A stretch of DNA of 64,000 bases. It comes from a virus. The translations under genes were made by a program, and so were the position numbers. Below the pieces are notes generated by a model. That model did no database searches, had not been told where the DNA came from, and saw nothing but the letters and a program-made list of their open reading frames with translations. Of this stretch, positions 1 to 60,516 are shown one piece after another. Location of the stretch: positions 12,205 to 76,204 of the IMG/VR virus record IMGVR_UViG_3300037070_006409; one strand, written 5' to 3'. Position 1 is the first letter of the stretch; every line of letters starts with the position of its first letter.

Positions 1-20
1 TTGCCGACCCCGATTCGATC

Positions 21-1883
21 GTGCTCTCCGTCCGCGCTCCAGACGGCACGATGTCGATCTACATCTACGAAGCCAGCAGCTCGGAAGAACCGCGGATCAT
101 GCGCACCGGCACTGGCGACTACTTCTTCCGCCTCCAGGGCACCGAAACCGGCGCCTACGAGTACCGCTGGAAATGGTCGGGAGGCGCCGACGGCGAGGAG
201 AGCGGCACCTTGTACTTCGGCGTCAACCCGCTGCTGGAGCCGTTCCCCGACGGCACCTTCACCGCCGCCGAAGTCTGGGCACGCTCGCTCACGTTGAAGG
301 CCCGCTACCCCCAGGGCAGCGGAGACGGCGACTTCGACCTCCTGGTCGCCGCCGTCGCGCCTCTCGTCGGCGATATGACCGGCCGGGCGATCGCCGGCAC
401 CGAAGGCGAGGAAGTCCCCGAGGACAAGCGCGAGGTGGCGCTGCGGGTGATGGCGATGAAGACCGAGCAGTTCGACGCCGCGCTCGGCAGCACCAAGGCC
501 CGCCGTCGCTCCCTCAACCGCGGCAACCTGGCGAGCTTCTCGGCGGGGGCCTACTGTGTCCCAATGGACACCGAAGCGCTGACCTCGAAAGGCTGGCGCA
601 ACTACGGCGATCTCTGCGTCGGCGATCTCGTGCTCGGCTTCGATCAAGATGCAGATGTTGCCCGGTGGACACCGATCACGAACATTCGCGCGCCATTTGA
701 GTCTGAGGTGGTCAAGCTGGGCAACGGTCGCTGGTCTCTGCGCTGCACGCCTGATCACCGCTGGATCTCGCGTGATGACCGTTGGTGCGTTCGCGACCAA
801 GAGAACCCCTGGGAGATGACGAAGACGCGGGAGCTACTGGAAGGCGAGCGCCGACTAGTGCTCGCCGCCCCAGCGGAGACAGAGCGCAAACTCGACATCA
901 GCCCTCCCGAGGCAGCCCTAATCGCTTGGCTTCTCACCGATGGGCATATCGAACGCCGGGAAGAGGCTGTCAAGGTCGAGGCCCCACCGCTGGAAGATGG
1001 CGGGACTCGTTGCCTTTGTGGGGCCTTCATCCCCTATGGAGGGCGGGGGATGCCAAGGCACTTCTGTGATGACTGCGCTCCGGTGCGTCAGACCGAAACC
1101 CGGGATGCCTCTATGCGAGGGCGGATCTTCCAGAAGCATTATCGCGAGGAGGTCGAGTCCGTTCTCACGGCTGTGGCTGTCCCTCATTCCGTTCGTGAGA
1201 GAGGAGAGCAGGGCGGTGTTTACAGTCTCGGGTGCAGATGGCTTGCCGACCTTTGGGAGCGCGCATGCTTCGATGAGCTAGGGCCATCAGGGTTTGTCCT
1301 AGCGCTTGATAGGGACCAGCGCGAGGCGTTCCTAGAGGCGGGCCTGCTGGCCGAGGGGCACCTCGCATCTGCTACTGCCCCGCTGAAGGCGAAGGGCAAC
1401 TATGGCCCGTGGTATCGCTGGCAGTTCGCTCAGAACAAGGGGCCGGTCCTCGATGCTTTTGTGCTTGCCGCCCATCTCTGCGGCTACGTGGCACGCACTT
1501 GGAAGACTAAGGCAAAGTGCAGTGGCTTCATCTGCGGAGCAGCCCATGCGACCACTCAAAGGCTGCGCGTCGAGCCAGATGGTCGAGGGTTGGTTTGGTG
1601 CATCACCACCGAGCTTGGCACTTGGACGATGCGCCAAGGCAACATCATCGCGTTGACAGGGAACAGCGAGTCCTACTTCGGCCCCGAGCAGGCGATGCTC
1701 GCGAGGAGGCTCGACCCCGACCCGATCCTCGCCGAGCTGCTCTGGGCGCTCTGCACCGCGGCCAAGCGGGAAGAGTGGCTCGCCTTCTGGGACCCCGAGA
1801 ACAACCCGCAGGGCGTCGGCGGCGTGGTCTCTTTCCAGTACGGCAACCGACCCAACTACGGAACGTCTAGTCGGGGGTGGTGA
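21..1883 (+). CDS. Head-tail connector (neck/adaptor) protein with N-terminal beta-rich domain, interrupted by an intein; probably 5'-truncated by the window edge
   Basis: The frame is open from position 3 (ADPDSIVLSVRAPDGT...). After intein removal the exteins read LASFSAGAY|SESY, resembling the SFS.G.YS.SY motif of gp15/gp6-like connectors. It lies directly upstream of head-closure and neck genes. Confidence 0.65.
   Translation: MLSVRAPDGTMSIYIYEASSSEEPRIMRTGTGDYFFRLQGTETGAYEYRWKWSGGADGEESGTLYFGVNPLLEPFPDGTFTAAEVWARSLTLKARYPQGSGDGDFDLLVAAVAPLVGDMTGRAIAGTEGEEVPEDKREVALRVMAMKTEQFDAALGSTKARRRSLNRGNLASFSAGAYCVPMDTEALTSKGWRNYGDLCVGDLVLGFDQDADVARWTPITNIRAPFESEVVKLGNGRWSLRCTPDHRWISRDDRWCVRDQENPWEMTKTRELLEGERRLVLAAPAETERKLDISPPEAALIAWLLTDGHIERREEAVKVEAPPLEDGGTRCLCGAFIPYGGRGMPRHFCDDCAPVRQTETRDASMRGRIFQKHYREEVESVLTAVAVPHSVRERGEQGGVYSLGCRWLADLWERACFDELGPSGFVLALDRDQREAFLEAGLLAEGHLASATAPLKAKGNYGPWYRWQFAQNKGPVLDAFVLAAHLCGYVARTWKTKAKCSGFICGAAHATTQRLRVEPDGRGLVWCITTELGTWTMRQGNIIALTGNSESYFGPEQAMLARRLDPDPILAELLWALCTAAKREEWLAFWDPENNPQGVGGVVSFQYGNRPNYGTSSRGW
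555..1664 (+). mobile_element. Intein (370 aa) with LAGLIDADG-type endonuclease region
   Basis: Block A CVPMDTEALTSKGW, block B LRCTPDHRW, block F/G VWCITTELGTWTMRQGNIIALTGN followed by +1 Ser. LAGLIDADG-like motifs IAWLLTDG and AFLEAGLLAEG. Confidence 0.93.
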
Positions 1884-1884
1884 G

Positions 1885-2457
1885 GTGCCGTCACGTGAGG
1901 AGGCTCGTCGGCTACGCGCCAAGGGCCTTCTGCATCGCGAAATCGCGAAACGACTCGGGGTGCATAGCTCGACGGTCTCGCGGTGGCTCAACGGTCGGAA
2001 GCCAGTGCCAGCCGGTAGCTCGACGCCATCGGCTCGCAAGGTCACCGAGACGCGCCGCGCTAACGGTCTCTGCCCTCGGTGCGGTCAGACCCCGGCACCG
2101 GGGCGGGTGACGTGCGAGGCCTGTCTGGGGATTGACCGGGAGAAAGCCCGCGCCGCTCGTCGCCGGCTGGTCGCTGAGGTGATCGCCGCATATGGTGGAG
2201 AGTGCGTCTGCTGCGGCGAGAGCGAGCCGATGTTTCTCACCGTGGATCACCCGAACGACGACGGCGCGGATCACCGCCGCGAGCTGGGGATGGCGCGAGA
2301 TCGCGGGCAGTCGGCTGGTAGCCACTTCTACATGTGGTTGAAGCGCGAAGGATTCCCGGCCAGGTTCCGGCTGCTGTGCTTCAACTGCAACTCAGGGCGT
2401 CATCGGAACGGCGGGTTGTGCCCGCACCAGCGTAAGCGGCTACGGGCGGTGGCCTAG
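1885..2457 (+). CDS. HTH + zinc-finger HNH endonuclease (free-standing homing type)
   Basis: N-terminal HTH (HREIAKRLGVHSSTVSRWL), CPRC/CEAC, then YGGECVCCGE...LTVDH...LLCFNCN HNH-type core. Confidence 0.85.
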   Translation: MPSREEARRLRAKGLLHREIAKRLGVHSSTVSRWLNGRKPVPAGSSTPSARKVTETRRANGLCPRCGQTPAPGRVTCEACLGIDREKARAARRRLVAEVIAAYGGECVCCGESEPMFLTVDHPNDDGADHRRELGMARDRGQSAGSHFYMWLKREGFPARFRLLCFNCNSGRHRNGGLCPHQRKRLRAVA

Positions 2458-2903
2458 TGCCTTTGGGCGATGTCACCGTCCACACCGCGACTCCGATCCT
2501 CACCACGACCAGCGAGGACGAAGACACCTGGGTCGAGGGCGAGCCTGACGAGACGACCAGCTTCGGCGTCGTCTTCGACTGCTTCTACATGCACGGCCGG
2601 GGTGCCACTGAGCAGCCAGCGGTGCCGCGGGGCCGGCGCAAGGTCGAGGGGCCGACGATCATCTACGAGTCCGAACGCGACGATGGCTCGATCGTCCAGC
2701 TCGTCGCTGAGGACGAAGTGGTGATCGACCCCGGCGATGATGAGGGCATCTGGGCTGTGCTCGGGGGCGAAGGCCAGACGGTGAAAGTCGGCAACGAGGA
2801 GATCCCCGGTGTCCGCTTCCAGGTAGACGGTGACCCCGAACCCTTCCAACCACCCGGCGAAGTGCTGGGCTTCCAGGCTCGGCTCAAGCGGGTGGTGGAT
2901 TGA
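2457..2903 (+). CDS. Putative head-closure (head-tail adaptor, gp16-like) protein
   Basis: Size, position between connector and gp10-like gene, and beta-rich composition ending RFQVDGDPEPF...GFQARLKRV. Confidence 0.55.
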   Translation: MPLGDVTVHTATPILTTTSEDEDTWVEGEPDETTSFGVVFDCFYMHGRGATEQPAVPRGRRKVEGPTIIYESERDDGSIVQLVAEDEVVIDPGDDEGIWAVLGGEGQTVKVGNEEIPGVRFQVDGDPEPFQPPGEVLGFQARLKRVVD

Positions 2904-3288
2904 GCACCAAGATCGTCAGGGACGGCGGCTACCAGCCCACTCGTGATCCCGGTCCGGTACCGCCCGAGCTGATTCGCAAGGCAACCTGCAAGAACTGCGG
3001 CCGCGAGCCGTGGATGGGGCGGCCGCTGCACGACATTGGCGGGGGGCGCAAGGTCTGTACCGACTGCTTCTGCTTCTTCTCTCGCATCGACCCCCGCGAT
3101 CCGGCCGCGGAGCGCACCGCCCGCAGCGGTGATCCTGTCCACCTCAGGCTCGATGAGTGGCACGCTGCTGGCGAACCTTCGGTGCCGGTCCCGCTGTCGG
3201 ATACCACTGCGGGCTTGCACGTCGAGGAGCATGGCTGGCCGCCTCGCTGGTTGGAATGGCTGTGCGGCTGGCTCAAGCGGGTGGTGGA
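2881..3288 (+). repeat. 19-bp direct repeat GGCTCAAGCGGGTGGTGGA at 2881-2899 and 3270-3288
   Basis: Read directly. Both copies encode LKRVVD at the 3' ends of consecutive ORFs. Confidence 0.95.
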
Positions 3289-3292
3289 CTAG
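2900..3292 (+). CDS. Hypothetical protein with CxxC pairs
   Basis: TCKNC and VCTDC. 4-nt overlap with the upstream stop, and flanked by the 19-bp repeat. Confidence 0.55.
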   Translation: MSTKIVRDGGYQPTRDPGPVPPELIRKATCKNCGREPWMGRPLHDIGGGRKVCTDCFCFFSRIDPRDPAAERTARSGDPVHLRLDEWHAAGEPSVPVPLSDTTAGLHVEEHGWPPRWLEWLCGWLKRVVD

Positions 3293-3508
3293 GTGGCGGG
3301 TGCCGCAGACATCGAAGGTGTGGCGCTGCGCCAGCTACGGCAGGAAGCCAATCTCCCCGACGACGTGCAGGCGAAGGCGATCGGCGCGGTCCTTAGGCGC
3401 TGCGGCGACGACGAGGATCTGGCTCTGACAGCGCTCACCATGATCCCGGGCCCGGAGTGGGTCTCCGAGTTGCTCGGCCTGCATCCCGAGCGGAAGGTAG
3501 GGATCTGA
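3293..3508 (+). CDS. Hypothetical protein
   Basis: Tightly packed ORF with TGATG coupling to the next gene. Confidence 0.55.
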   Translation: MAGAADIEGVALRQLRQEANLPDDVQAKAIGAVLRRCGDDEDLALTALTMIPGPEWVSELLGLHPERKVGI

Positions 3509-3873
3509 TGCCGCGCAACGTCGAGGGCCGCCGCGTCGAGACCGCCGAGGAGATCGAGCAGGGCGGCGACTACGTGGTCAAGTACGCGCCCGACAGCAAG
3601 GTCATCGCCGCGATCGTCTTCGCCATGCCGGGCTTCTCCGAGCGCGACTCTGGCGCCCCGCTGTGGAACCGCATCGCCGGCCAGGGATCCTCGGACCCGC
3701 GCGACCGGGTGCGCTGGGAGATCACCGAGGACGAGCAGGGACGGGTCACGGTTGCCCCCTCGATCAAGGCGCAGTGGCCCGAAGGTGAGGAGGGTGAGCG
3801 CAAGCTCTTCCACGCCTACCTGCGCGATGGCACCTGGGAGGTGCTGGACGACACAGCCGGGGCGAGCTGGTAG
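3508..3873 (+). CDS. Hypothetical protein, DUF6527-like
   Basis: WEITED..GRVTVAPSI...FHAYLRDGTW resembles the T..PSI...H..L..G.W pattern recalled for DUF6527. ATG at 3508 overlaps the upstream TGA. Confidence 0.45.
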   Translation: MPRNVEGRRVETAEEIEQGGDYVVKYAPDSKVIAAIVFAMPGFSERDSGAPLWNRIAGQGSSDPRDRVRWEITEDEQGRVTVAPSIKAQWPEGEEGERKLFHAYLRDGTWEVLDDTAGASW

Positions 3874-3875
3874 CC

Positions 3876-4415
3876 GTGGGCTACAAAGCCGACGGCGATC
3901 TCGGCACAGACCTCTTCCCCGAGCGCTTCATCACCGAGACCGCCGAGGAGATCGCCGACGCCGTGGGCGACCGCTTCCGCGACGGCGTGGCAAAGCGCAC
4001 CCCGGTCGCCCGTCTTCCCCAGGCCTACACCGGGGACTTCATCGAGTGGATCAAGGACCGCGGTGGCCGCACGCCGCGGACCATGCGCGACTCCTGGCGC
4101 CGCTCGACCGTCAAACGCAACCCTGACGGCACCCTCACCGTCGAGATCTACAGCGACGAACCGATGGACAGCCAGGGTCGGCAGAAGGCCGATCTTGTCG
4201 AGGAGGACACGCGGCCGCACCTCATCCGGGCCAAGCGCGCCAAGGCCCTGCGCTACCCGTTCGGGCCGGTCTTCCGCTACAACGTCGAGGTCTGGCACCC
4301 CGGCACCCAGGGCGTCCATATGTGTCGCGACACCGAAGCCGAGATGGAGGTGGCGTGGGAGACGATCGCCCGCCCGATCCTGGAGCGCAAGGAGCGCGAG
4401 TACAGCGACGTGTAG
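3876..4415 (+). CDS. HK97 gp10-like neck/tail-completion protein
   Basis: RTPV...MRDSW...VEEDTRPHLIRAKRAKALRY...VWHPGTQG, characteristic of this family. Confidence 0.75.
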   Translation: MGYKADGDLGTDLFPERFITETAEEIADAVGDRFRDGVAKRTPVARLPQAYTGDFIEWIKDRGGRTPRTMRDSWRRSTVKRNPDGTLTVEIYSDEPMDSQGRQKADLVEEDTRPHLIRAKRAKALRYPFGPVFRYNVEVWHPGTQGVHMCRDTEAEMEVAWETIARPILERKEREYSDV

Positions 4416-10243: not shown

Positions 10244-13200
10244 ATGGCGGTTCGAGGATCTTTTGATCTGAACGACAAACCCGCCTCCGAGGCCCTCCGC
10301 AGCATCCGGCGCGAGGGGGCGCTCACCGAGCGCCAGATGCGCAGCCTCGGCGATGCAGTCGATGATGTGTTCTCGACGGCCAACCGGGAGGCAGCGCGGG
10401 CTTACGAGCGCGATCTGCGCTCCGTCGATCGCACCGCCGTTCGTAGCCTCGGCAACCTCCGCCGGGAGTGGCGCACCACCGAGCGCGAGGTCCTCTCCTC
10501 GGTCGCGAAGCAGGAGGCTGAGATCGGCAGCCTGGAGACCTCGCTGCGCAGTCTCGGAACCGTCGATGCTCGCCCGAACATCAACCTGCATGGCTTCGCC
10601 GAGGCCAACGCCCAGATCGACACCATCGAAGCTCGCCTGCGGTCGCTCGGTGCCGTCACCGCCAGGCCCAACGTCAACGTCTCGGGGGGCTGGCGACCGC
10701 CCGGCAGCTCCGGGGGCAGCCGCGGCGGCAGTGGCTTCGGCGGGCGGGGCCTCAATATCCCCTTCGCCGGCCGGATCCCCTGGCCCCTGGTCGGTGGTGC
10801 TCTCGCTGCCGCTCCGCCGCTCGTCGGTGGCGCCACGGGCCTGCTCGGCAGCGCCGCTTCGGCGACGCTCGGCCTCGGTGCCCTCGGCCTGACCGGCGGC
10901 GGTGTCGCCGCGGTCGGCGCTGGCACCGCGCTCCCCAGCACGATTATGGCCGCCAAGGGGATCTCGGCGGCAAGTAAAGCGTTCGAGAAGTACCAGCAGG
11001 AGGTCATCCAGTCCGGCCCCAATTCCGAAGCTGCACGCGTGGCCTTCCGCGAACTCAACATGGAGCTGCGCGACGCCCCGCGAGGCACGCGGCGCTTCCT
11101 CGCCTCCCGCCAGGCCCTCGGCCGGGAGTTCGCTGCGGCGACGCGACCGGGGCAGGCCTCCGTGGCGGCGATGGCTACCCGCGGGATCAACCTCGGGCGC
11201 CAGCTCACCCCGCTGACCGGCCAGCTCTCCAATCGCTTCCTTGGTGAGGCCCAGGGCCAGACGGACCAGTTCGCCGGCTTCCTCAACGACCGCCGCTCGC
11301 GCGACTTCTACCGCGCGATGAGCGCTGAGGCGACCGCCGACCTCAGCTCGATGGAGTCGATCTCCGAGAACGTCCTGGCGACGATGATGAACATCGCCCG
11401 CGCCGGGCGGCCCTTCTTCCACGAAGCCGTCGAGTTCGTGGACGACTGGACGGGTGGCTGGAGCGAGGGCACCCGCGACATTCACGACACTCGGCGCGAG
11501 CTGGGGCAGATGGTCGATGACCTCCGCGCCTGGGGCCACCTTGGCGGCGCCGGCTTCGACCTGATCCAGGATCTCTTCGGGGCTTCGCGCCAGCCCGGCA
11601 CCTCATTGGTCGAGAGCCTCACCGACCAGCTTCGCGAGTGGGACCGCTGGGTGGAACGCAACCCCGCCCAGGTCAGCCAGTTCTTCGAGGACTCGGCCGA
11701 AGGCACGGAAAAGATCGCTGGGGCGCTCTCGCGCATCACCGGGCTGCTGTGGCGGGTCAGCCGCCAGCTCACCCCGCTGCTCGAACAGGGCGCGAACTTC
11801 GTAGAACTCCTCGGCAACGCTGGCCTGCTGACGCCCGGCGGGCTGCCTCTGCTGCTCGGGGCTGGCGCTGGCGTGCGCGGGGCCTTCGGACGCGGGGGGG
11901 GTACGGCCCGTGGTGGTGCTGCTGGCGGTGGTGCCGGAGCGCCGATCATCCTTGGCGGTGGTGGCGCGGCGGCAGCGGGAGGCTTCGGCAGCCTCTTCGA
12001 TCGCGAGACCTATGGCCTCGCCCGTGGCTTCGGCCGCGGCCGTCTCGCCTCTACCGTTGCAGGACTCGGGGCGGGTTCGAGCGGGGCACGCGCGGCAGCG
12101 GGCGGCCGCAGCTTCGGTCGCAGCTTCGGTCCCTACGCCCTGCTAAGCGCTGGCCTCGGCGCCGCTGGAACCGAAGGCAACATCTGGGAGCGCCTCCAGG
12201 GCGGGATCAGCCAGGCCTCTCTCGGACTTGTCGCCCCACCCAAGACCCAGGCGCAGGAAATGGACGAGGGGATGCAGGAAGCCGCCCAGATCAGTGCTCG
12301 GCTCGGGCGGCGCTTCGGTGATGACCCGTCCGGCCTGACGCAGCAGATCCACGCCCTGCTGCGGCGCCGGGGAGAGGCGATGACCCCCCAGCCGCACGGC
12401 GGTCTGACCGGCTTCCTCACGACGAGCCTCAACCCCGCCGATGAATTCTTGACGCGGCCACGCTTCCTCTCCGACGAGGCGCGCCAGCGAGCGCGTGGAT
12501 TCACCGGCCAGATCGGCTCCCTCCGCGAGCAACGCGCCTCGGTGGTCTCTCAGTCCGCGCTCGGGGAGATCCAGGGTGCTTTCGGCATCCGAACCCGCCA
12601 CGGCGAGGACCCCGGCCAGGCCTTCGAGAAAGCCGCCTCCTCGATCGAGAGTCGTGCCGGGAGGATGAAGGGCCGCACGGGCCGTGAGTTCTCCCAGATG
12701 GGCCTCAACTGGGCGCGCTCGATGGCGCGCTCAAACCCGAAACTCAAGGGCGCTGTCGATGACCTCGCCCGCTCGATCGAAAACCGCCTCAACAAGACGG
12801 GCGAGAACGTCCGCATCATCAACGGCCGGATCGTGGACGTGTCGGCGAAGTCTTGGAAGAACGTCGCCGACCTGATCGGGACCCAGACCCAGCGGGCCTA
12901 CTCCGAAGCCAACGAGAACCTCACCGCCCTCGAAAAGCGAGCTTTCACGATTCTGCGTCAGATGGGCTACTCCCAGGGCGATGCGAAGGCCTTGGTCTAC
13001 GAAGCTCAGCACGGCCATCCCTCCCGCCAGCGCGGCCAGGAACAGGCGACTGCGCATCACTTCGGGCGCACCCTGCCGACCACAAGCAGCATGGACGGGC
13101 GCGGTCATGCGACCGGCGGCAGGCTCCCAATGCCGCGCAGCGGCTCTATGCACGACGTGCTTAGTCTCGGCGGCGGCAACATGGCAGCCGGCGGCGAGCT

Positions 13201-41848: not shown

Positions 41849-43642
41849 ATGGCGCTAGCCGCCAAGCGCTTCGGCGCTGGGCCTGCTCAGGGCCTGCGGG
41901 TGCGGGACGTGCTCGGGGAGGTGCGTCGAGAAGCCGCTGACGACCAGCCAGTGCGCCGCTCAATGCGCGAGTACGGCATCCTCATCCCGGAGGCCTCGCG
42001 CGGCCCGCTGCGGCTCGATGACTTCCCCTTCCAGATCGAGCCGTTCTACTCCGACGAGATCGCCGAAGCCGAGGATGTCGTCACCATGAAGAGCACCCAG
42101 ATCGGTGCATCCTCGGGCATGGTCCGGTGGGCGGTGCGCCTCGCCGATCAGATGGGGGAGACCGTCATCTACTTCTTCCCCACCCAGGTGCACGTCTCCG
42201 AGTTCGGGACCGAAAAGCTGGAGCCGTCGATCAAAGCCTCCGACTACCTCCAGCGCCGGATGCCCCGCGGCCACACCCGCAACAAGTCCCAGAAGCAGAT
42301 CGGCCTCGGCTTCCTCTACCTCCGCGGGATGCAGTCGAAAGCCGCCGTGCAGTCGATCCCCGCCCAGGCAGTCGTGATTGACGAGTACGACGAGTGCCCC
42401 CCGCAGCGCATCGAGGAAGCCGAGAATCGGATCTCCGGCGCCGCGGGCCTCGGCAAGATCGGCCGCGTCCGCCGGCTCGGCCGTCCGTCGGTGCCCGGCT
42501 ACGGCATCGACGCCGCCTTTCAGGAATCCGATCAGCGGGCCTGGATCGTCACCTGCCCCGAGTGCGGACACGAGCAGAAGATCACCTTTGCCGACAATCT
42601 GCGCTGGCACTCCGAGGCGGCTGGCGACAAGATCCTGCGTCCCGGCCACGACGAGTTCGAGAAGCGCAAGGACGTGACCTCGGCCTGGCGGGTCTGTAGG
42701 AAATGCGAGGCCAGCCTGGAGGGCAAGCCGATCCGCACCGGCATCTGGGTCCCACAGTCTCCCGGCCCAGGCGCCATCCCCGGCTTCCACATCCCACGCT
42801 TGATCGTCCCCCGCACCGATCTCCGCCGTGTCGTCGTCAACTCGCGCAAGACGAAGGTGATCGAGATCGAAACCTTCCACAACCACGATCTCGGCGAAGC
42901 CTGGGCGGCTTCCGACGCGCGCCTCACCGACGACGACCTCGCCCGCGCCTCCGCTCAGGGCATGGAGCCGCAGGCTCGCTACACCGGCCGCTACCCGGTG
43001 ACGCTCGGCCTCGACGTGGCCTCCGAGCGGGACCTGAGCTGTCGGATCTCCGAGCTGCTGCCCGACGGCACACGCCGTGCCCTGCGGATCTGGGAACCAA
43101 AGGACTACGAGGAAGTCGCGAAGGCAATGGTGGACTTCCGCGTCCACGTCGCCGCGGTGGACTCGATGCCCGACCGCCGCGGGATCGGACGGCCCCTCCA
43201 GCAGGCGTTCCCCGGCCGCGTCTTCCTGGTCGAATACGACGACAACCCGCGCTCCGACGCCTGGACCTACGACGACAGGCGGCAGGTGATTCGCGTCAAC
43301 CGCACCGAGGCCCTCGACGCCATGATGGACTCGATCCGCTCGGTCACCAACATCCCAACGAAGCCGATGCCGGCCGGCTACATCGAGCAGATGAAATCCC
43401 CGGTGCGCAAGCTGGAGGAAGACTCCAAAGGGCGCCCGCATCGGGTATACCGCAAGACCGGGACCCAGGGTGACGATTGGGCGCATGCCGAGGTCTATGA
43501 TCTCGTCGCCGCCGAGATGCTCAACGCCCTCACAATGACCCAGCAGCAGCAAGAAGACGGCGAGCCGCAGATAGTCGGCGCGCCCGAGCCGGTCTCCCTG
43601 GGCTGGGGCAATACCGACTACCGACCGGGCTTCGGCGAATGA
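41849..43642 (+). CDS. terL: Terminase large subunit (lambda GpA-like)
   Basis: FQIEPF...MKSTQIGAS, IYFFPT, VVIDEYD, RPSVPGYGID..F..SDQR.W...CPECG.EQ, GLDV, C-terminal DDWAHA..Y. Confidence 0.9.
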   Translation: MALAAKRFGAGPAQGLRVRDVLGEVRREAADDQPVRRSMREYGILIPEASRGPLRLDDFPFQIEPFYSDEIAEAEDVVTMKSTQIGASSGMVRWAVRLADQMGETVIYFFPTQVHVSEFGTEKLEPSIKASDYLQRRMPRGHTRNKSQKQIGLGFLYLRGMQSKAAVQSIPAQAVVIDEYDECPPQRIEEAENRISGAAGLGKIGRVRRLGRPSVPGYGIDAAFQESDQRAWIVTCPECGHEQKITFADNLRWHSEAAGDKILRPGHDEFEKRKDVTSAWRVCRKCEASLEGKPIRTGIWVPQSPGPGAIPGFHIPRLIVPRTDLRRVVVNSRKTKVIEIETFHNHDLGEAWAASDARLTDDDLARASAQGMEPQARYTGRYPVTLGLDVASERDLSCRISELLPDGTRRALRIWEPKDYEEVAKAMVDFRVHVAAVDSMPDRRGIGRPLQQAFPGRVFLVEYDDNPRSDAWTYDDRRQVIRVNRTEALDAMMDSIRSVTNIPTKPMPAGYIEQMKSPVRKLEEDSKGRPHRVYRKTGTQGDDWAHAEVYDLVAAEMLNALTMTQQQQEDGEPQIVGAPEPVSLGWGNTDYRPGFGE

Positions 43643-54865: not shown

Positions 54866-55894
54866 ATGAGCAAGGGGCGAGACAGCGAGAAGGAGCGCGA
54901 AGAAGCCCTCGAAGGTGCGCTCGATCAGATCGAGCGCGACCACGGCAGCGGGGCGGTAATGCGCCTCGGCACCGACGAGACGATCAAGGTGCCAGCGATC
55001 CCGACCGGCTCCCTCGCGCTCGATATGGCCCTCGGCATCGGTGGCTACCCCCGCGGGCGGATCGTGGAGATCTTCGGCCCCGAGTCCTCGGGCAAGACGA
55101 CGCTTATCTACCACGTCATCGCCCAGGCCCAGGCCCGCAAGGGCACCTGCGCCTTCATCGACACCGAGCACGCGATCGACCCGACCTACGCCCGAGCGAT
55201 CGGCGTGGACACCGACGCCCTGCTCGTCTCCCAGCCCGACTACGGCGAGCAGGCCCTCCAGATCGCCGACCGGCTCATCTCCTCCTCGGCGCTCGACGTG
55301 ATCGCGATCGACTCCGTGGCCGCACTCGTGCCGAAGGCCGAGCTGGACGGCCAGATCGGCGACACCACGGTCGGCCTCCAAGCTCGCTTGATGAGCCAGG
55401 CCATGCGCAAGCTCGCCGGCAACGTCAGCCGCTCGGGCACGATCGCCATCTTCACCAACCAGCTTCGTGAAAAGGTCGGCGTGCACTTCGGTAACCCCGA
55501 GACCCAACCCGGCGGCCGCGCGCTCAAGTTCTACTCCTCGCAGCGCCTCGACATCCGCCGCATCGAGACGCTCAGGGACGGCAGCGAGGCGGTCGCCTCT
55601 CGCGTCCGGGTCAAAGTCGTCAAGAACAAGGTCGCCGCCCCGCACCGCCAGGCCGAGTTCGACATCGAGTACGGCACCGGGGTCTCGCGGCAAGGGGAGC
55701 TGATCGACTACGGGATCGAGCAGGGCATCATCCGCAAGTCGGGGGCGTTCTTCTCCTACGGCGAGACACGGCTCGGCCAGGGTCGAGCCAACGCCAAGGT
55801 CTTCCTCGCCGAGAACACCGAGCTGGCCGCCGAGATCGAAACGCAGATCCGCAGCGCCCTAGACATCCCAACCTACGAACCGAGAGGAGTCTGA
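54866..55894 (+). CDS. recA: Recombinase RecA
   Basis: [88 protein letters not shown]. Confidence 0.98.
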
Positions 55895-56234: not shown

Positions 56235-58289
56235 ATGGGCGTCGCCGACACCTTCCGCGAACGGCTGACCGGGGTCCTAGAGGATTGGACAGGCATAACC
56301 GTCGCTCCCGTCCACGAAGTCACTGGCCTCCGCGAGCAGGCCGAACACATGGGCTACTTCCTCGATGAAGTCGAGGACCTCGCCATCTCGGTGATGGACT
56401 ACTCCAACGGCCGCCCGCATGAGGTGCAGGCCGCCCACCGTCGCCGCCTCGCCCAGCAGTCGCGGATCGCCCTGATGCACGACCCCCTGGCCGGCGCCGA
56501 GGCCACGCTCCGATCCAACTTCGCCTTCGGCCGCGGGATCTCCAAGCCGCAGGCCAAGGACCCCGAGGTGCAGAAGATCATCGACGCCGCCTGGTCGAAC
56601 CCGAACAACGAACGCAAGCTGACCGGGTTCGAGGCTCAGCGACATCGCTCCAACGAGATGCTCACCACCGCCAACCTCTTCCCCACCCTCTACAGCGCTA
56701 ACGGCAAGATCAGGGTCGGCTTCCGGGACGCCGACGACGTGACCGATGTCGTCTGCGATCCCGAAGACGACGAGACTCCACTGTGGTACGTCGTCCGCAA
56801 GCGCAAGGCAGAGTGGGACTTCGGCCTCCACCAGTACAAGCCGGTGCTCGGCTACGAGCTGGAGAACGGCACCGAGAAGGTGTGGTACGTCCCCCACTGG
56901 CGCAACGTCGAGGACCTGGAACGCTGGTCGAAAGAGGTCGGCGAGCAGGCCCCGCCCCGTCCCGACAAGGGCCACATCCTCCCCGGCGCCGTCGAGCACT
57001 TCCGCATCAACCGGATCGGGCGCTCGCAGTTCGGGACGCCACCGTGGGCGCGCACGCTTCGCTTCTACACGGCGATCAACCAGCTCACCGAGGCCCAGGT
57101 GCAGATGCGCCAGGGTGCCGCCTCGATCATCGCCCAGCGGATGCGCCGCTCTGGCGGCGACCGGAAACTGATGAAAAACGTCTCCCAGGTGATGAACCGG
57201 GCTGGCGAGATCGGCTCCGCCACCTTCCGCCGGCAGACTCAGGGCGGGCCACCCGAACCCACCGGCCCCGGCACCCAACCCGGCCCGCGCGAAGCGGTGC
57301 CGCCGCCAGGAGCCGGGTCGTGGTGGGACGGCTATGAGCACGACAAGATCGAGGCCGTCAACCTCCGCTCGGGTGCCGGCGAGGCTCTCCAGGACGCCCA
57401 GATCGTTCGCGCACCGATCTCGGCCGCCTCGGGCTTCGGCCAGCATTACCTCGGCGACCCCTCGAACACCAACCTGGCGACGGCGACCACGCTGGAGCTG
57501 CCGACGCTCATGGAGGTCGGCGCCTGGCAGGAGACCTTCGAGCAGCTCTACTGCTGGTTCACCGACCGAGTGGTCGAGGCGGCGGTGCACGCTGGCCTCC
57601 TCGGCGGCATGATCTCCGAGGAAGAGACTCTCGATCCACGCAGCCTCGGCGAACTGCACATCCGCGAGGACCGCGAGGAGATGGAACAGCGCACCGGGCG
57701 CGACCTCTCCTACACCTTCCAGATGCCCTACCCCGGCCGACGCAACCTGCCGGACGTGACCTCGGCCGTCTCCGCCGTGCTGGTCACCCTCGACCCCGCC
57801 GGTCGCAATTGGGCGCTGCGGGAGCGGATGGCCGACTTCCTCTTCCGCCACGGCTTCGAGTCCGAGGACCCCGCCAGCGATGTCGAGGAAATCCTCAAGG
57901 AAGCTCGCCGCATCCAGAAGGAGGAAGACGCCAAGGCGCAGGCCATGTTCGCCGCGAGCGGTGGCGGTGGGTCTATCCCCCCGACGGGACCTCCCGAAGA
58001 AGACGGCGAAGGCTCCAAAGGAACCGAAGGCTCCAGCCAGTACGGCGAGCGACGCAAACGCACCCCGCCGACTCGCGATATGGGCGGCGGCCCGCGCACG
58101 AAAGAGGTGCTGCGAGAGGGCATCAGCGACCCGACCGAGTTCAACGACGCGATCACCGCGGCACTCATCGCCGACGCCCGCGAAGCCTGGCAGCAAGGCC
58201 TCACGGACCCGGCACTGCTGAGCCGCGGGCGTCCAACCAACGGCAACGGTGCCTCAACCTCGCCGCCAAGCTCGGCCGGCCCGCTCTAG
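56235..58289 (+). CDS. Portal protein
   Basis: DPLAG.......NF.FGRGI......VQ.IID..W.NP.N, FRINR, A.DA......I.A.SG...HYLGD....NLATAT..ELP; precedes a MuF-like gene. Confidence 0.75.
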   Translation: MGVADTFRERLTGVLEDWTGITVAPVHEVTGLREQAEHMGYFLDEVEDLAISVMDYSNGRPHEVQAAHRRRLAQQSRIALMHDPLAGAEATLRSNFAFGRGISKPQAKDPEVQKIIDAAWSNPNNERKLTGFEAQRHRSNEMLTTANLFPTLYSANGKIRVGFRDADDVTDVVCDPEDDETPLWYVVRKRKAEWDFGLHQYKPVLGYELENGTEKVWYVPHWRNVEDLERWSKEVGEQAPPRPDKGHILPGAVEHFRINRIGRSQFGTPPWARTLRFYTAINQLTEAQVQMRQGAASIIAQRMRRSGGDRKLMKNVSQVMNRAGEIGSATFRRQTQGGPPEPTGPGTQPGPREAVPPPGAGSWWDGYEHDKIEAVNLRSGAGEALQDAQIVRAPISAASGFGQHYLGDPSNTNLATATTLELPTLMEVGAWQETFEQLYCWFTDRVVEAAVHAGLLGGMISEEETLDPRSLGELHIREDREEMEQRTGRDLSYTFQMPYPGRRNLPDVTSAVSAVLVTLDPAGRNWALRERMADFLFRHGFESEDPASDVEEILKEARRIQKEEDAKAQAMFAASGGGGSIPPTGPPEEDGEGSKGTEGSSQYGERRKRTPPTRDMGGGPRTKEVLREGISDPTEFNDAITAALIADAREAWQQGLTDPALLSRGRPTNGNGASTSPPSSAGPL

Positions 58290-60516
58290 CGAACCGCCGC
58301 CAACGGCTGCGGCGCCGATCGGCGGAATCATCGCCGGGACGCCGAGCGCCGCAGCGGGCGCGGCTGCGCTGGCGACGGGAGCGAAGGCTCAGGCTTCGGT
58401 CGTCCAGAACACGATCAAGGCGGTGCTGGGGATGCTCGCCGCGATCGCGCTCCGGCGGACGAAGATCATCCGCGACCGCGCCGTCGCCGTTTACCCGATG
58501 GCCGACCTCGACCTCGCCATCGCCGAGGAGGACCGCCGCGAGATCGTCTTCCGCAAGCGGGTCGAGCAGCGGCTGCGCGCCGGCATGAAGGTCGCCATGC
58601 GCGCGAAGGACCCCTCAGCGCGCTCCGCGGCGATCGAGGCCCTGCTCAACCGCGAGCAGCGCTACGCCGAGATGCGCACGGCCGCGGCCGGCGAACGAGT
58701 CCTGGCCGCGGCGGAGTTGCAGGACCTGCGCACGCGCTCGCCCCAAGGCGCCTTCTGGGCGCTGGGGATGCGCCAGCGCCACACTCCCGATTCGGTCGGT
58801 CCTGGCATGGTGGTAGAGGGTCCCCCTCTCGAAGCAGCAGCACGTCGCTGGTTCGACGGCGAGCTAATCGAGATCGAGACCAAAGGCGGCGGACGCCTGT
58901 CCTTGACTCCCAATCACCCGGTACTCACCGTGAAAGGATGGGTCGCTGCGCGAGCGCTCGATAAAGGCGACGACCTGATCCGTCACCTGGCGGCTGGGGT
59001 GACCGCTTCGGCGCAGGATGACATAGATGACGTTCCACCCGTGATCGAGGAGATATTCGGTGCGCTTTCGGAGGTGAATCCGCTTGCGCGGGGAGTTATG
59101 CCAGTCCGAGCCGAGGACTTCCACGGCGACGGGCAGCACGGCTATGTCGAGGTTGTAGCTACCTACGGCGCGCTGGGGGAGCGGGTCGAAGCCGCGATCG
59201 CGCAGCAGCGCCAAGAGGGCGCCCTCGTTTGGAACGGCGTGGGACTGATGCAGCTCGGCGGTGAGGGACGCTCGGCAGCGAGCGCGATGACTATTGCCGC
59301 CATTGTGCTCGACTCCACGCAGCCTCACGCCAGCGGCCTTCAGGCGCCTCGTCAACGAGGACCTGGAGATTCCGGAGCTACGACTCAGGGCGAGGACAGA
59401 CTCGCCACCCAGGTAGGCCTCAACCACGTCGGCCGGTGCAGGTTCGACCTGGCTGCGGATTTCTACCCCGAGCCGTTCCAGGGCGTTAATGACCGTCTGG
59501 CCAGTGATCCCGTAGTCGCGGCCGAGCTTCAAGGCGGACTCGCCGGCCCGGTAGCGACTGACGAGATCATCGGCATTCGGCGGCGACCATACGCGGGCCA
59601 CGTCTATGACCTCCAGACCGTCGGGCGTTGGTTCACGGTAGACAGTCTAGTGGTGAGCAATTGCGTTTCGATGGCCGGTCGTTTCTGGCCCTGGGTAGTC
59701 CTCAACGAGGTCCACCCGCTGCTGCACGTCGGCTGCGGCTGCCGCCTCTTCTCCTACGGCGATGCCCTCGCGAAAGGGATGATGGCCGCCACCGACGTGA
59801 TGAGCAACCAGGCCGCGCTCCGGCTCGCCGCTCCGGTGATCCAGCACGTCCGCGATGAGAAGGCCGAGGCAGAGCGCAAGTACGGGCCGATGGCCGAGGA
59901 TGAAGCGGCCGCCACCGAGGAGCTGCTGATCCGCGAGGCGCTGCTGGACCGTGGTGGCGATGCTGACGCCCTGGCGGCGATGCCGCTCTCGTGCGACCCA
60001 CTGCCAGCACCGCTCGGCGTGATCGCCGAGGCCGAAGAGCAGACCGGAGCGATGGTCGCACTGTTTCCAGATCGGAAACTGTCGAAGAAGCTGGCACTGC
60101 CCGGCGGCGATCCTCCCGAGCAGCTCCACGTCACCCTCGCCTTCCTCGGCAAGGCCGCCGACCTGGACTTCGACAAGGCCCGCGCCGCCGTCGAGGCCTG
60201 GGCCAAGAAGACGCCGCCGCTCTCCGGCGAGCTGTCGGGCATCGGCCACTTCGACCTCGGTCGCGGGGAGAAGGTCACCTACCGCTCCGTCGATCTCCCC
60301 GAGCTGCCGACACCGCGCGAGGGCCTCATCGCCGACCTCGACAAGGCGGGCGTGCCACCGCGCCGCGACCACGGATTTTCCCCCCGCATGACGATCGACA
60401 GCCGGATGCGCCGGCCCGAGGTGAAGAAACAGCCGATCACCTTCGCTGAGGTCACCCTCGCCTGGGGAGGGGAGCGGCATCCCTTCCCGCTCCGTGGGGG
60501 AAAGAAATCCACCTGA
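58249..60516 (+). CDS. MuF/SPP1 gp7-like minor head protein containing an intein and a C-terminal 2H phosphoesterase domain; start uncertain
   Basis: Spliced exteins RHTPD|CVSMAGRFW...HPLLHVGCGCRL (MuF Cys/His motif). The C-terminus has HVTLAFLG...FSPRMT (LigT/2'-5' RNA ligase-like). Confidence 0.72.
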   Translation: MPQPRRQARPARSSEPPPTAAAPIGGIIAGTPSAAAGAAALATGAKAQASVVQNTIKAVLGMLAAIALRRTKIIRDRAVAVYPMADLDLAIAEEDRREIVFRKRVEQRLRAGMKVAMRAKDPSARSAAIEALLNREQRYAEMRTAAAGERVLAAAELQDLRTRSPQGAFWALGMRQRHTPDSVGPGMVVEGPPLEAAARRWFDGELIEIETKGGGRLSLTPNHPVLTVKGWVAARALDKGDDLIRHLAAGVTASAQDDIDDVPPVIEEIFGALSEVNPLARGVMPVRAEDFHGDGQHGYVEVVATYGALGERVEAAIAQQRQEGALVWNGVGLMQLGGEGRSAASAMTIAAIVLDSTQPHASGLQAPRQRGPGDSGATTQGEDRLATQVGLNHVGRCRFDLAADFYPEPFQGVNDRLASDPVVAAELQGGLAGPVATDEIIGIRRRPYAGHVYDLQTVGRWFTVDSLVVSNCVSMAGRFWPWVVLNEVHPLLHVGCGCRLFSYGDALAKGMMAATDVMSNQAALRLAAPVIQHVRDEKAEAERKYGPMAEDEAAATEELLIREALLDRGGDADALAAMPLSCDPLPAPLGVIAEAEEQTGAMVALFPDRKLSKKLALPGGDPPEQLHVTLAFLGKAADLDFDKARAAVEAWAKKTPPLSGELSGIGHFDLGRGEKVTYRSVDLPELPTPREGLIADLDKAGVPPRRDHGFSPRMTIDSRMRRPEVKKQPITFAEVTLAWGGERHPFPLRGGKKST
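58792..59661 (+). mobile_element. Intein (290 aa) starting with Ser
   Basis: SVGPGMVV...block B LTPNHPVLTVKGWVAARALDKGD, block F GHVYDLQT, end LVVSN followed by +1 Cys. Confidence 0.88.
58864..59601 (-). CDS. Tandem HTH + DUF559/Vsr-like endonuclease nested antisense inside the intein
   Basis: YRAGESALKLGRDYGIT..TV...L and YLGGES..L...GIS..SL..RL HTHs; PQRAVGSYNLDIA...VEVLGSDWH...L...GWNV nuclease. GGAGG lies 8 nt upstream of the GTG start. Confidence 0.85.
   Translation of the reverse strand: MARVWSPPNADDLVSRYRAGESALKLGRDYGITGQTVINALERLGVEIRSQVEPAPADVVEAYLGGESVLALSRSSGISRSSLTRRLKAAGVRLRGVEHNGGNSHRARCRASLTAELHQSHAVPNEGALLALLRDRGFDPLPQRAVGSYNLDIAVLPVAVEVLGSDWHNSPRKRIHLRKRTEYLLDHGWNVIYVILRRSGHPSRQVTDQVVAFIERSRSDPSFHGEYRVIGSQGQASAAFGLDLD

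Follow-up and report, generated by a model that had tools for sequence, protein, structure and literature searches.

In a 64,000-nucleotide (nt) stretch of DNA from a soil virus (IMG/VR record IMGVR_UViG_3300037070_006409, positions 12,205 to 76,204; the whole stretch is referred to as the window), a gene placed after the portal gene contains an intein on the + strand (58792-59661), and a second gene, which encodes a nuclease, lies wholly within that intein on the - strand (58864-59601). We consider it very probable, on sequence evidence, that this is a contiguous mobile intein whose own homing nuclease is a separate, selected antisense gene, and for which independent expression of the nuclease, protein splicing and homing are predicted. 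The contiguous intein and the separate, selected nuclease gene are supported by homology, predicted fold, the comparative openness of the two frames, and the frame-specific ratios of non-synonymous to synonymous substitution rates (dN/dS, or ω).

The intein comprises 290 amino acids (aa), from Ser1 (codon 58792-58794) to Asn290 (59659-59661), and is followed by Cys+1 (59662-59664). A previous sequence-only reading of the window had described a contiguous + strand intein from Ser1, a TPNH motif, a VYDLQT motif and an SN|C terminus, and its boundaries are the ones recovered here. The Pfam profile Intein_splicing matches with E = 1 × 10−7, the sequence aligns with 8 homologous inteins, and a Foldseek search with the model of the host-frame intein returned intein splicing domains only (probability 1.00 for those of the Mtu RecA and Pho RadA inteins). 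Ser1, a nucleophile, aligns with Cys1 of 7 homologues. Block B (TPNH, 58906-58917) lies in a phmmer match to the block B region of the Mtu RecA mini-intein, where it is aligned to TPDH, and P40, H42 and P43 of this region are invariant in the intein alignment; block F (GHVYDLQT) occupies 59596-59619 and block G (VVSN) 59650-59661. AlphaFold2 (AF2) models both lobes of the Hint fold with confidence, the N-lobe (residues 1-65, 58792-58986) with a per-residue confidence score (pLDDT) of 78-91 and the C-lobe (residues 252-290, 59545-59661), which the intein alignment also covers, with a pLDDT of 75-91.

Between the lobes, the host frame runs through a linker (residues 66-251, 58987-59544) with pLDDT mostly 29-49 (29-42 for residues 125-250, at an alignment depth equal to that used for the nuclease). 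This centre has no Pfam family, and an atlas search with residues 225-440 found no family either (best score 0.76). The one host-frame motif that is conserved, (E)DFHGDG...VEVV, mirrors VAVEV and YNLD of the nuclease codon for codon, which explains why tblastn with the host frame, too, aligns end to end. The host-frame centre is apparently an open linker and not a folded or selected domain, as judged from the model, the searches and an ω of ~1 in relatives; this agrees with the earlier statement that the + strand intein has no recognisable endonuclease in its middle.

On the - strand, the nested gene starts with GTG and encodes 245 aa plus a stop codon, with two helix-turn-helix (HTH) modules (aa 10-43, 59473-59574, and aa 57-89, 59335-59433) followed by a Vsr-like nuclease core (aa 120-242, 58876-59244). 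When both strands were searched with profile hidden Markov models, Intein_splicing was found on the + strand, and PF18741 (REase_MTES_1575) plus HTH families were found on the - strand; the PF18741 match of the window protein (E = 6 × 10−8, 33.1 bits) falls below the gathering cut-off of 38.2 bits. In a nuclease alignment of 19 members, 13 of which match PF18741 and 3 DUF559, the residues Y149, N150, D152, E161 and R180 are invariant and all are kept in the window, including both acidic residues (D152 in YNxD and E161 in VAVE), whereas the histidine of the ExDGxxH type is present in the window protein (SDWH) and absent from some relatives. The family profile matches the Protein Data Bank (PDB) entries 3HRL (DUF559-like, 4.8 × 10−7), 3R3P (I-Bth0305I, 7.4 × 10−5) and 2LVS (tandem HTH, 4.9 × 10−7). 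An AF2 model built from a 9-sequence alignment (mean pLDDT 84.8) consists of two three-helix modules and an alpha/beta core of the Vsr type, which is complete, and a language-model search groups the protein with viral HTH/DUF559 clusters (score 0.96). The proposed 245-aa HTH-HTH-Vsr-like nuclease is upheld by these matches, and the invariant acidic residues are candidates for the catalytic ones, whose lack the earlier reading had named as a refutation. A phmmer search of 1.84 billion representatives found 2,581 clusters at E ≤ 1 × 10−3, of which 1,094 at E ≤ 1 × 10−10. A search for related loci in genome and viral contigs with the nuclease gave pattern matches only and no confirmed relative. 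Numerous short contigs of other organisms in the soil runs stack, to a depth of up to 119, on exactly two stretches, 58912-58950 (block B and nuclease tail) and 59110-59157 (the nuclease catalytic motif), so that many related elements appear to exist in the same samples.

The nuclease and host frames are exact codon complements, + position 1 pairing with - position 3, so that a stop in the antisense register can arise only from the host codons TTA, CTA or TCA. Both frames are stop-free over 738 nt, as had been pointed out before; at 67% GC this is not evidence by itself, since from the codon usage of the rest of the gene about 1 such codon is expected in 246 codons and the probability of finding no stop is ~0.4. 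Long shadow open reading frames (ORFs) occur elsewhere in the window, such as the - strand ORF of 639 codons at 56277-58196 opposite the portal gene, which is typical of high-GC DNA, and openness alone is therefore not evidence in this genome. Because the openness in the window could be due to chance, the case rests on homology, fold, dN/dS and relatives of low GC content. Relatives of 44-51% GC keep an open antisense frame although 6-20 stops are expected: none was observed in coliphage Snoke (10 expected, P = 4 × 10−5), in Vibrio phage 1.197.A (19 expected, P = 6 × 10−9), or in Vibrio phage H2 (20 expected, P = 2 × 10−9). In Snoke, a third frame of 213 codons (locus L001, 2517-3158, + strand) is also open over the dual-coding region; as a gene it was set aside and treated as chance, the frame being of 152 codons in Pantoea AH01 and absent in SE1, and it is probably a by-product of skewed codon use.

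Searches by tblastn with either frame hit the same places in ~100 phage records, including Salmonella Jerseyviruses, coliphage Snoke, phages of Pantoea, Pseudomonas, Vibrio, Gordonia and Rhodococcus, and a Mycobacterium phage. In 15 of 15 record loci that were fetched and read, the nuclease frame is antisense to an annotated head gene. We compared selection on the two frames among 8 enterobacterial phage alleles (intein identity 78-98%), with ω calculated by the Nei-Gojobori method (NG86). In the exteins, the frequencies of variable sites at host codon positions 1, 2 and 3 were 0.43, 0.28 and 0.90; in the overlap they were 0.49, 0.14 and 0.32, a shift to the first host position (the third position of the nuclease codon), with variable-site counts of up to 25 vs. 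5 in central windows. In the intein centre, the antisense frame had an ω of 0.05-0.25 and the host frame one of 0.7-1.8, whereas in the exteins the host frame had 0.03-0.09 and the antisense frame 1.1-3.1. Where the Hint N-lobe overlaps the nuclease tail, both frames gave intermediate values of ω, which is what true dual coding should produce. This is the pattern predicted by the sequence-only reading, with purifying selection on the - frame in the centre and on both frames at the overlapping end, and its assertion of dual coding at blocks B and F likewise fits, as the two ends of the nuclease ORF overlap these blocks. Across nine metagenomic loci, the DNA of the centre was 36% identical when read as nuclease and 24% when read on the strand of the host gene.

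The same direction of change is seen in the window lineage. Between the window and its closest relative (L016, 56% nuclease identity), the nuclease frame of the centre was 55% identical and its host frame 38%, with dN/dS of 0.39 and 0.83, respectively. Differences in the centre fell on host codon positions 1, 2 and 3 in the numbers 106, 51 and 84; the corresponding counts for the two Hint lobes were 15, 6 and 31, and 8, 7 and 19.

The expression signals of the nuclease gene lie antisense to the splicing blocks. Its GTG start codon reads antisense to CAC, the codon for His in block F, and the Shine-Dalgarno sequence GGAGG (59614 to 59610, - strand) stands 8 nt upstream, antisense to the D-L-Q codons of block F, in the position that had been read from the sequence. 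In each of the 19 loci checked, the start codon has this same relation to the His codon of block F, and GGAGG, GAGG or AAGG is antisense to the (D/N)-L codons in most of them. In 7 of the 19 loci, one of which has 62% GC, a perfect extended -10 element, TGnTATAAT, is found at -51 from the start, as the antisense of the block G codons ATT-ATA-NCA (Gly-Ile-Ile region); at the same position, one more locus has TACAAT and one, Vibrio H2, has TATTAT with a TTGACT -35, and in Gordonia phage Malisha TACAAT stands at -54. Each time, Ile is encoded by ATA, a rare codon, which suggests selection for a promoter of the nuclease's own, a signal that is not separable from shared ancestry. In the window, there are two weak candidates for a -10 element on the - strand, antisense to block G and its vicinity: TAGACT (59649 to 59644), a TAnnnT match whose position is homologous to that of the strong -10 of relatives, and TACCGT (59640 to 59635), a bare TAnnnT match. 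The latter hexamer had been proposed as -10-like; it is there, although a consensus scan of the window for promoters and terminators came back empty, with no promoter of the sigma-70 type. Expression of the nuclease independently of the host gene is plausible, given the conserved start, Shine-Dalgarno and -10 signals in relatives. A regulatory constraint on the 60 nt upstream of the nuclease start (8 of 20 synonymous sites variable vs. 313 of 347 in the exteins, P = 2 × 10−7) was considered and rejected because the whole intein is younger than the exteins and the synonymous-site rate in the nuclease is ~0.6.

In relatives, the intein and the nuclease gene move as one block. The Snoke-type head gene is found in 671 phage records, and the intein is covered in 75 of these; it is missing from close extein relatives of Snoke (aa identity as high as 93%). 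In their intein DNA, Snoke and Salmonella phage nctD30 are 97.7% identical, compared to 68.7% for the N-exteins and 82.4% for the C-exteins, which indicates that the block spread horizontally and recently in these phages. Such a pattern is hard to reconcile with a free-standing selfish homing endonuclease gene that uses the intein as a harmless landing pad and cuts elsewhere or beside it (collaborative homing), given that identity drops sharply at the extein borders and that a cut elsewhere would not co-convert the intein. This alternative, which we regard as unlikely, draws on the resemblance of the family to the free-standing Vsr-like homing endonuclease genes of fractured genes and on the occurrence of the nuclease-plus-intein unit in unrelated exteins (a dCMP deaminase, a CmcI-like methyltransferase, and the uracil-DNA glycosylase (UDG) domain of DNA polymerase A). 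However, the 7 metagenomic members of the nuclease family that were sampled, at 49-70% GC, all lie nested alike in inteins of one family, with a host frame that is codon-aligned and open and a start opposite the block F His codon, their exteins being of the MuF type in five cases, a CmcI-like methyltransferase in one and the UDG domain of DNA polymerase A in one.

Some of these loci carry further features. Virus Rctr197k (L006, KX853510.1; 1096-2502, + strand) has a related intein with an antisense nuclease in a gene annotated as head morphogenesis protein, whose exteins hold dCMP-deaminase zinc motifs (HxE ... PCxxC; the junction is HLPCVA|C ... THN|CAKR), a probable case of extein switching. 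A UDG-DNA polymerase A fusion gene (L026, JGI 3300043607; ~1-4000, - strand) has two inteins, the first in the UDG motif (TNTVR|C ... THN|CRPPSNR), with the antisense nuclease P0010, and the second in the polymerase domain, starting with CIAEGQRVL and ending with LVHN|C. In L023 (Logan SRR20462244; 952-3050, - strand), the unit interrupts the CmcI-like S-adenosylmethionine methyltransferase, and gene calling gave two ORFs around it for the one host gene. A Nitrososphaerota cluster of 73 members in the ESM Atlas has DUF559, Intein_splicing and Radical_SAM on one protein; this may represent the antisense layout's counterpart on the sense strand, with the DUF559 nuclease in frame within an intein.

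Several observations in the window and its lineage weigh against a functional mobile intein with an antisense homing nuclease. The penultimate residue of the window intein is Ser, where 7 of the 8 homologues have His and one has Arg, and in L016, the closest relative, intein position 1 is occupied by Ala (210-1082, - strand; the intein starts at THTAD|AVLPGAIV and has a normal His-Asn|Cys C-terminus), which suggests a class-2-like or non-canonical splicing route, or a loss of splicing, in that lineage. The nuclease lacks a helical segment of ~40 residues that most relatives have between the second HTH module and the core, and selection in the window lineage (ω ~0.4) is weaker than in the enterobacterial set. 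To these are added the openness of the antisense frame, which chance could produce, and the promoter scan noted above. A search for sequencing runs with the window sequence returned soil DNA runs only and no RNA runs. No intein-less allele of the window gene was found among the contigs of four soil runs, nor any joint removing 58792-59661; this check used contigs, and the absence of such an allele is not established by it. With the deletion in the nuclease, Ser1 and Ser-Asn in place of Cys1 and His-Asn, and the Ala1 of its closest relative, the window lineage could be partly degenerate.

Taken further, the open frame, the deletion, the lost His, the weaker selection and the empty promoter scan are what would be left of a decaying relic, in which the intein still reads through while the nuclease, and perhaps canonical splicing, are dead and the ORF stays open by high GC alone. 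We hold this to be very unlikely for the window phage, as none of Y149, N150, D152, E161 and R180 is missing, AF2 predicts a complete Vsr-like core with confidence, and the differences from L016 concentrate at nuclease codon position 3 (106, vs. 84 and 51 at the others). The deletion is shared with Rctr197k and with the relative of only 56% identity, and the shortened form is intact in the latter, which points to a maintained variant. Putative catalytic residues, predicted fold and the direction of selection argue for the function of the window copy. That the - strand ORF is a product-less shadow and the + strand centre the real domain, as the long antisense ORFs of high-GC genomes (e.g., that opposite the portal gene) and the conserved host-frame DFHGDG might be taken to mean, is exceedingly improbable, because the centre has ω ~1 in the host frame but 0.05-0.25 when read antisense, only the - frame has independent matches in Pfam, in the PDB and by fold, the centre read in the host frame is modelled at low pLDDT and matches no family, and DFHGDG is the codon mirror of VAVEV; a conserved, folded + strand domain under selection, which the earlier reading had named among the findings that would overturn it, is not what we see.

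In the preferred reading, a mobile intein of the class-1 type has inserted into a head gene next to the portal gene, at a conserved H-x-x-(D/N)|C site, in an uncultivated soil phage of high GC content. The slot between the Hint lobes in which inteins usually have their endonuclease would be occupied by a homing endonuclease gene of the free-standing type, on the opposite strand and in codon register, with a predicted product made up of two resolvase-like HTH modules and a core of the Vsr-like/DUF559/EDxHD kind. As antisense stops come only from TTA, CTA and TCA, the host frame can continue across the nuclease gene and encode an unstructured linker there, and linker and Hint domain would be removed together by protein splicing. 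The nuclease would be made from its own message, with a start, a Shine-Dalgarno sequence and, in many relatives, an extended -10 antisense to the splicing blocks. It would presumably cut intein-less alleles in co-infecting phages, whose repair would copy the intein together with the nuclease gene, as the pattern of transfer among relatives suggests; that it acts during replication, as the earlier reading had suggested, is pure inference.

The source record comprises 78.9 kb (CheckV completeness 79%), and its sequence is also present in soil metagenome runs. The window has 66.5% GC and genes mostly on the + strand, among them those for the terminase large subunit (41849-43642), a UvsX-like recombinase (54866-55894) and the portal protein (56235-58289). 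The host gene (58249-60516, + strand) overlaps the 3' end of the portal gene and is open over 755 aa; Pfam places an intein splicing domain split over residues ~202-458 and, at the C-terminus, a 2H/LigT phosphoesterase domain (aa 620-725, 60106-60423; PF13563 and PF02834). PHROGs labels the 2H/LigT region 'RNA ligase', and the fusion is unusual for a portal-adjacent structural gene. The extein had been taken for MuF, an identity that neither Pfam nor PHROGs bears out, as no MuF match was found in the N- or C-extein; gene order and the insertion-site motif H-x-x-D|C, which resembles HPN|CRC, are what speaks for it. We describe the host gene as head-morphogenesis-like. A blastn search of phage records with the host gene found no match.

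The architecture was thought to be undescribed when it was noticed in the sequence, but it is already known: anti-sense VSR-like homing endonuclease (HEN) inteins in actinophage minor capsid genes were reported by Gosselin, Arsenault and Gogarten (bioRxiv 10.1101/2025.01.02.630785, Fig. 3C), and the window element, a contiguous intein ORF with a Vsr-like ORF antisense between its splicing blocks, is one more member of this layout. Antisense LAGLIDADG HENs in inteins are cited there from Gorbalenya 1998 and Gogarten 2002. The survey of Gosselin et al. covered PhagesDB only, whereas the element described here comes from an uncultivated soil phage and has relatives in Salmonella, E. coli, Pantoea, Pseudomonas and Vibrio phages; their main text gives no frame-specific selection test for the antisense Vsr-like type and does not mention the promoter, the ribosome-binding site or block F. 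What is added here is the strand switch of selection for the Vsr-like type, its spread to Proteobacteria phages and to thousands of nuclease clusters, and the overlap with blocks B and F together with the mirror-encoded expression signals.

Three other systems share part of this organization. Frame-specific ω was analysed for a dnaX intein by Phillips et al. (bioRxiv 10.64898/2026.09.14.751524), from the same laboratory as Gosselin et al.; in inteins with an antisense or out-of-frame LAGLIDADG HEN (such as that of Synechocystis dnaX), as here, the HEN lies in another frame than the splicing domain and ω takes low values in the frame of the HEN and high ones in that of the host, but the enzyme is a LAGLIDADG endonuclease and not a Vsr-like nuclease with HTH modules, and the ORF described by Phillips et al. 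is a +2 ORF and not a codon-aligned antisense one. In fractured genes, a free-standing Vsr-like (EDxHD) homing endonuclease gene lies between split-intein halves (Dassa et al. 2009, PMC2677866; I-Bth0305I, PMC3239194), so that the nuclease superfamily, the free-standing gene with its own signals at the HEN slot and the coding overlap with the neighbouring intein part are all shared; there the intein is split, whereas here it stays contiguous, since the host frame continues across the antisense nuclease gene. Canonical large inteins (e.g., PI-SceI and PI-PfuI; in-frame LAGLIDADG or HNH) have the same Hint fold, HEN insertion after the block B region and homing logic, but their nuclease is part of the same polypeptide, so that its production is tied to the time and place of host protein synthesis, whereas here it is a separate gene.

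Within the overlap, ~700 nt encode two proteins on opposite strands, and selection changes strand within one gene. Most phage annotation misses the nested gene, which is unannotated in the Snoke and actinophage records and a 'hypothetical protein' in PK1. The layout is also more extensive than the published survey suggests, with thousands of clusters, phages of both Actinobacteria and Proteobacteria, and several extein types. It is possible, and we offer this tentatively, that the antisense layout is an old co-adapted unit rather than a rare accident, and that in it an HTH-plus-Vsr-like nuclease clade (~2,600 clusters at 50% identity) occurs essentially only in one intein family and has its expression signals hard-wired antisense to the splicing blocks. 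If so, host RNA polymerase could make the nuclease independently of late structural-gene expression, and the apparent embedding of promoter, Shine-Dalgarno sequence and start codon antisense to the splicing blocks would offer a testable explanation of why intein and nuclease stay together.

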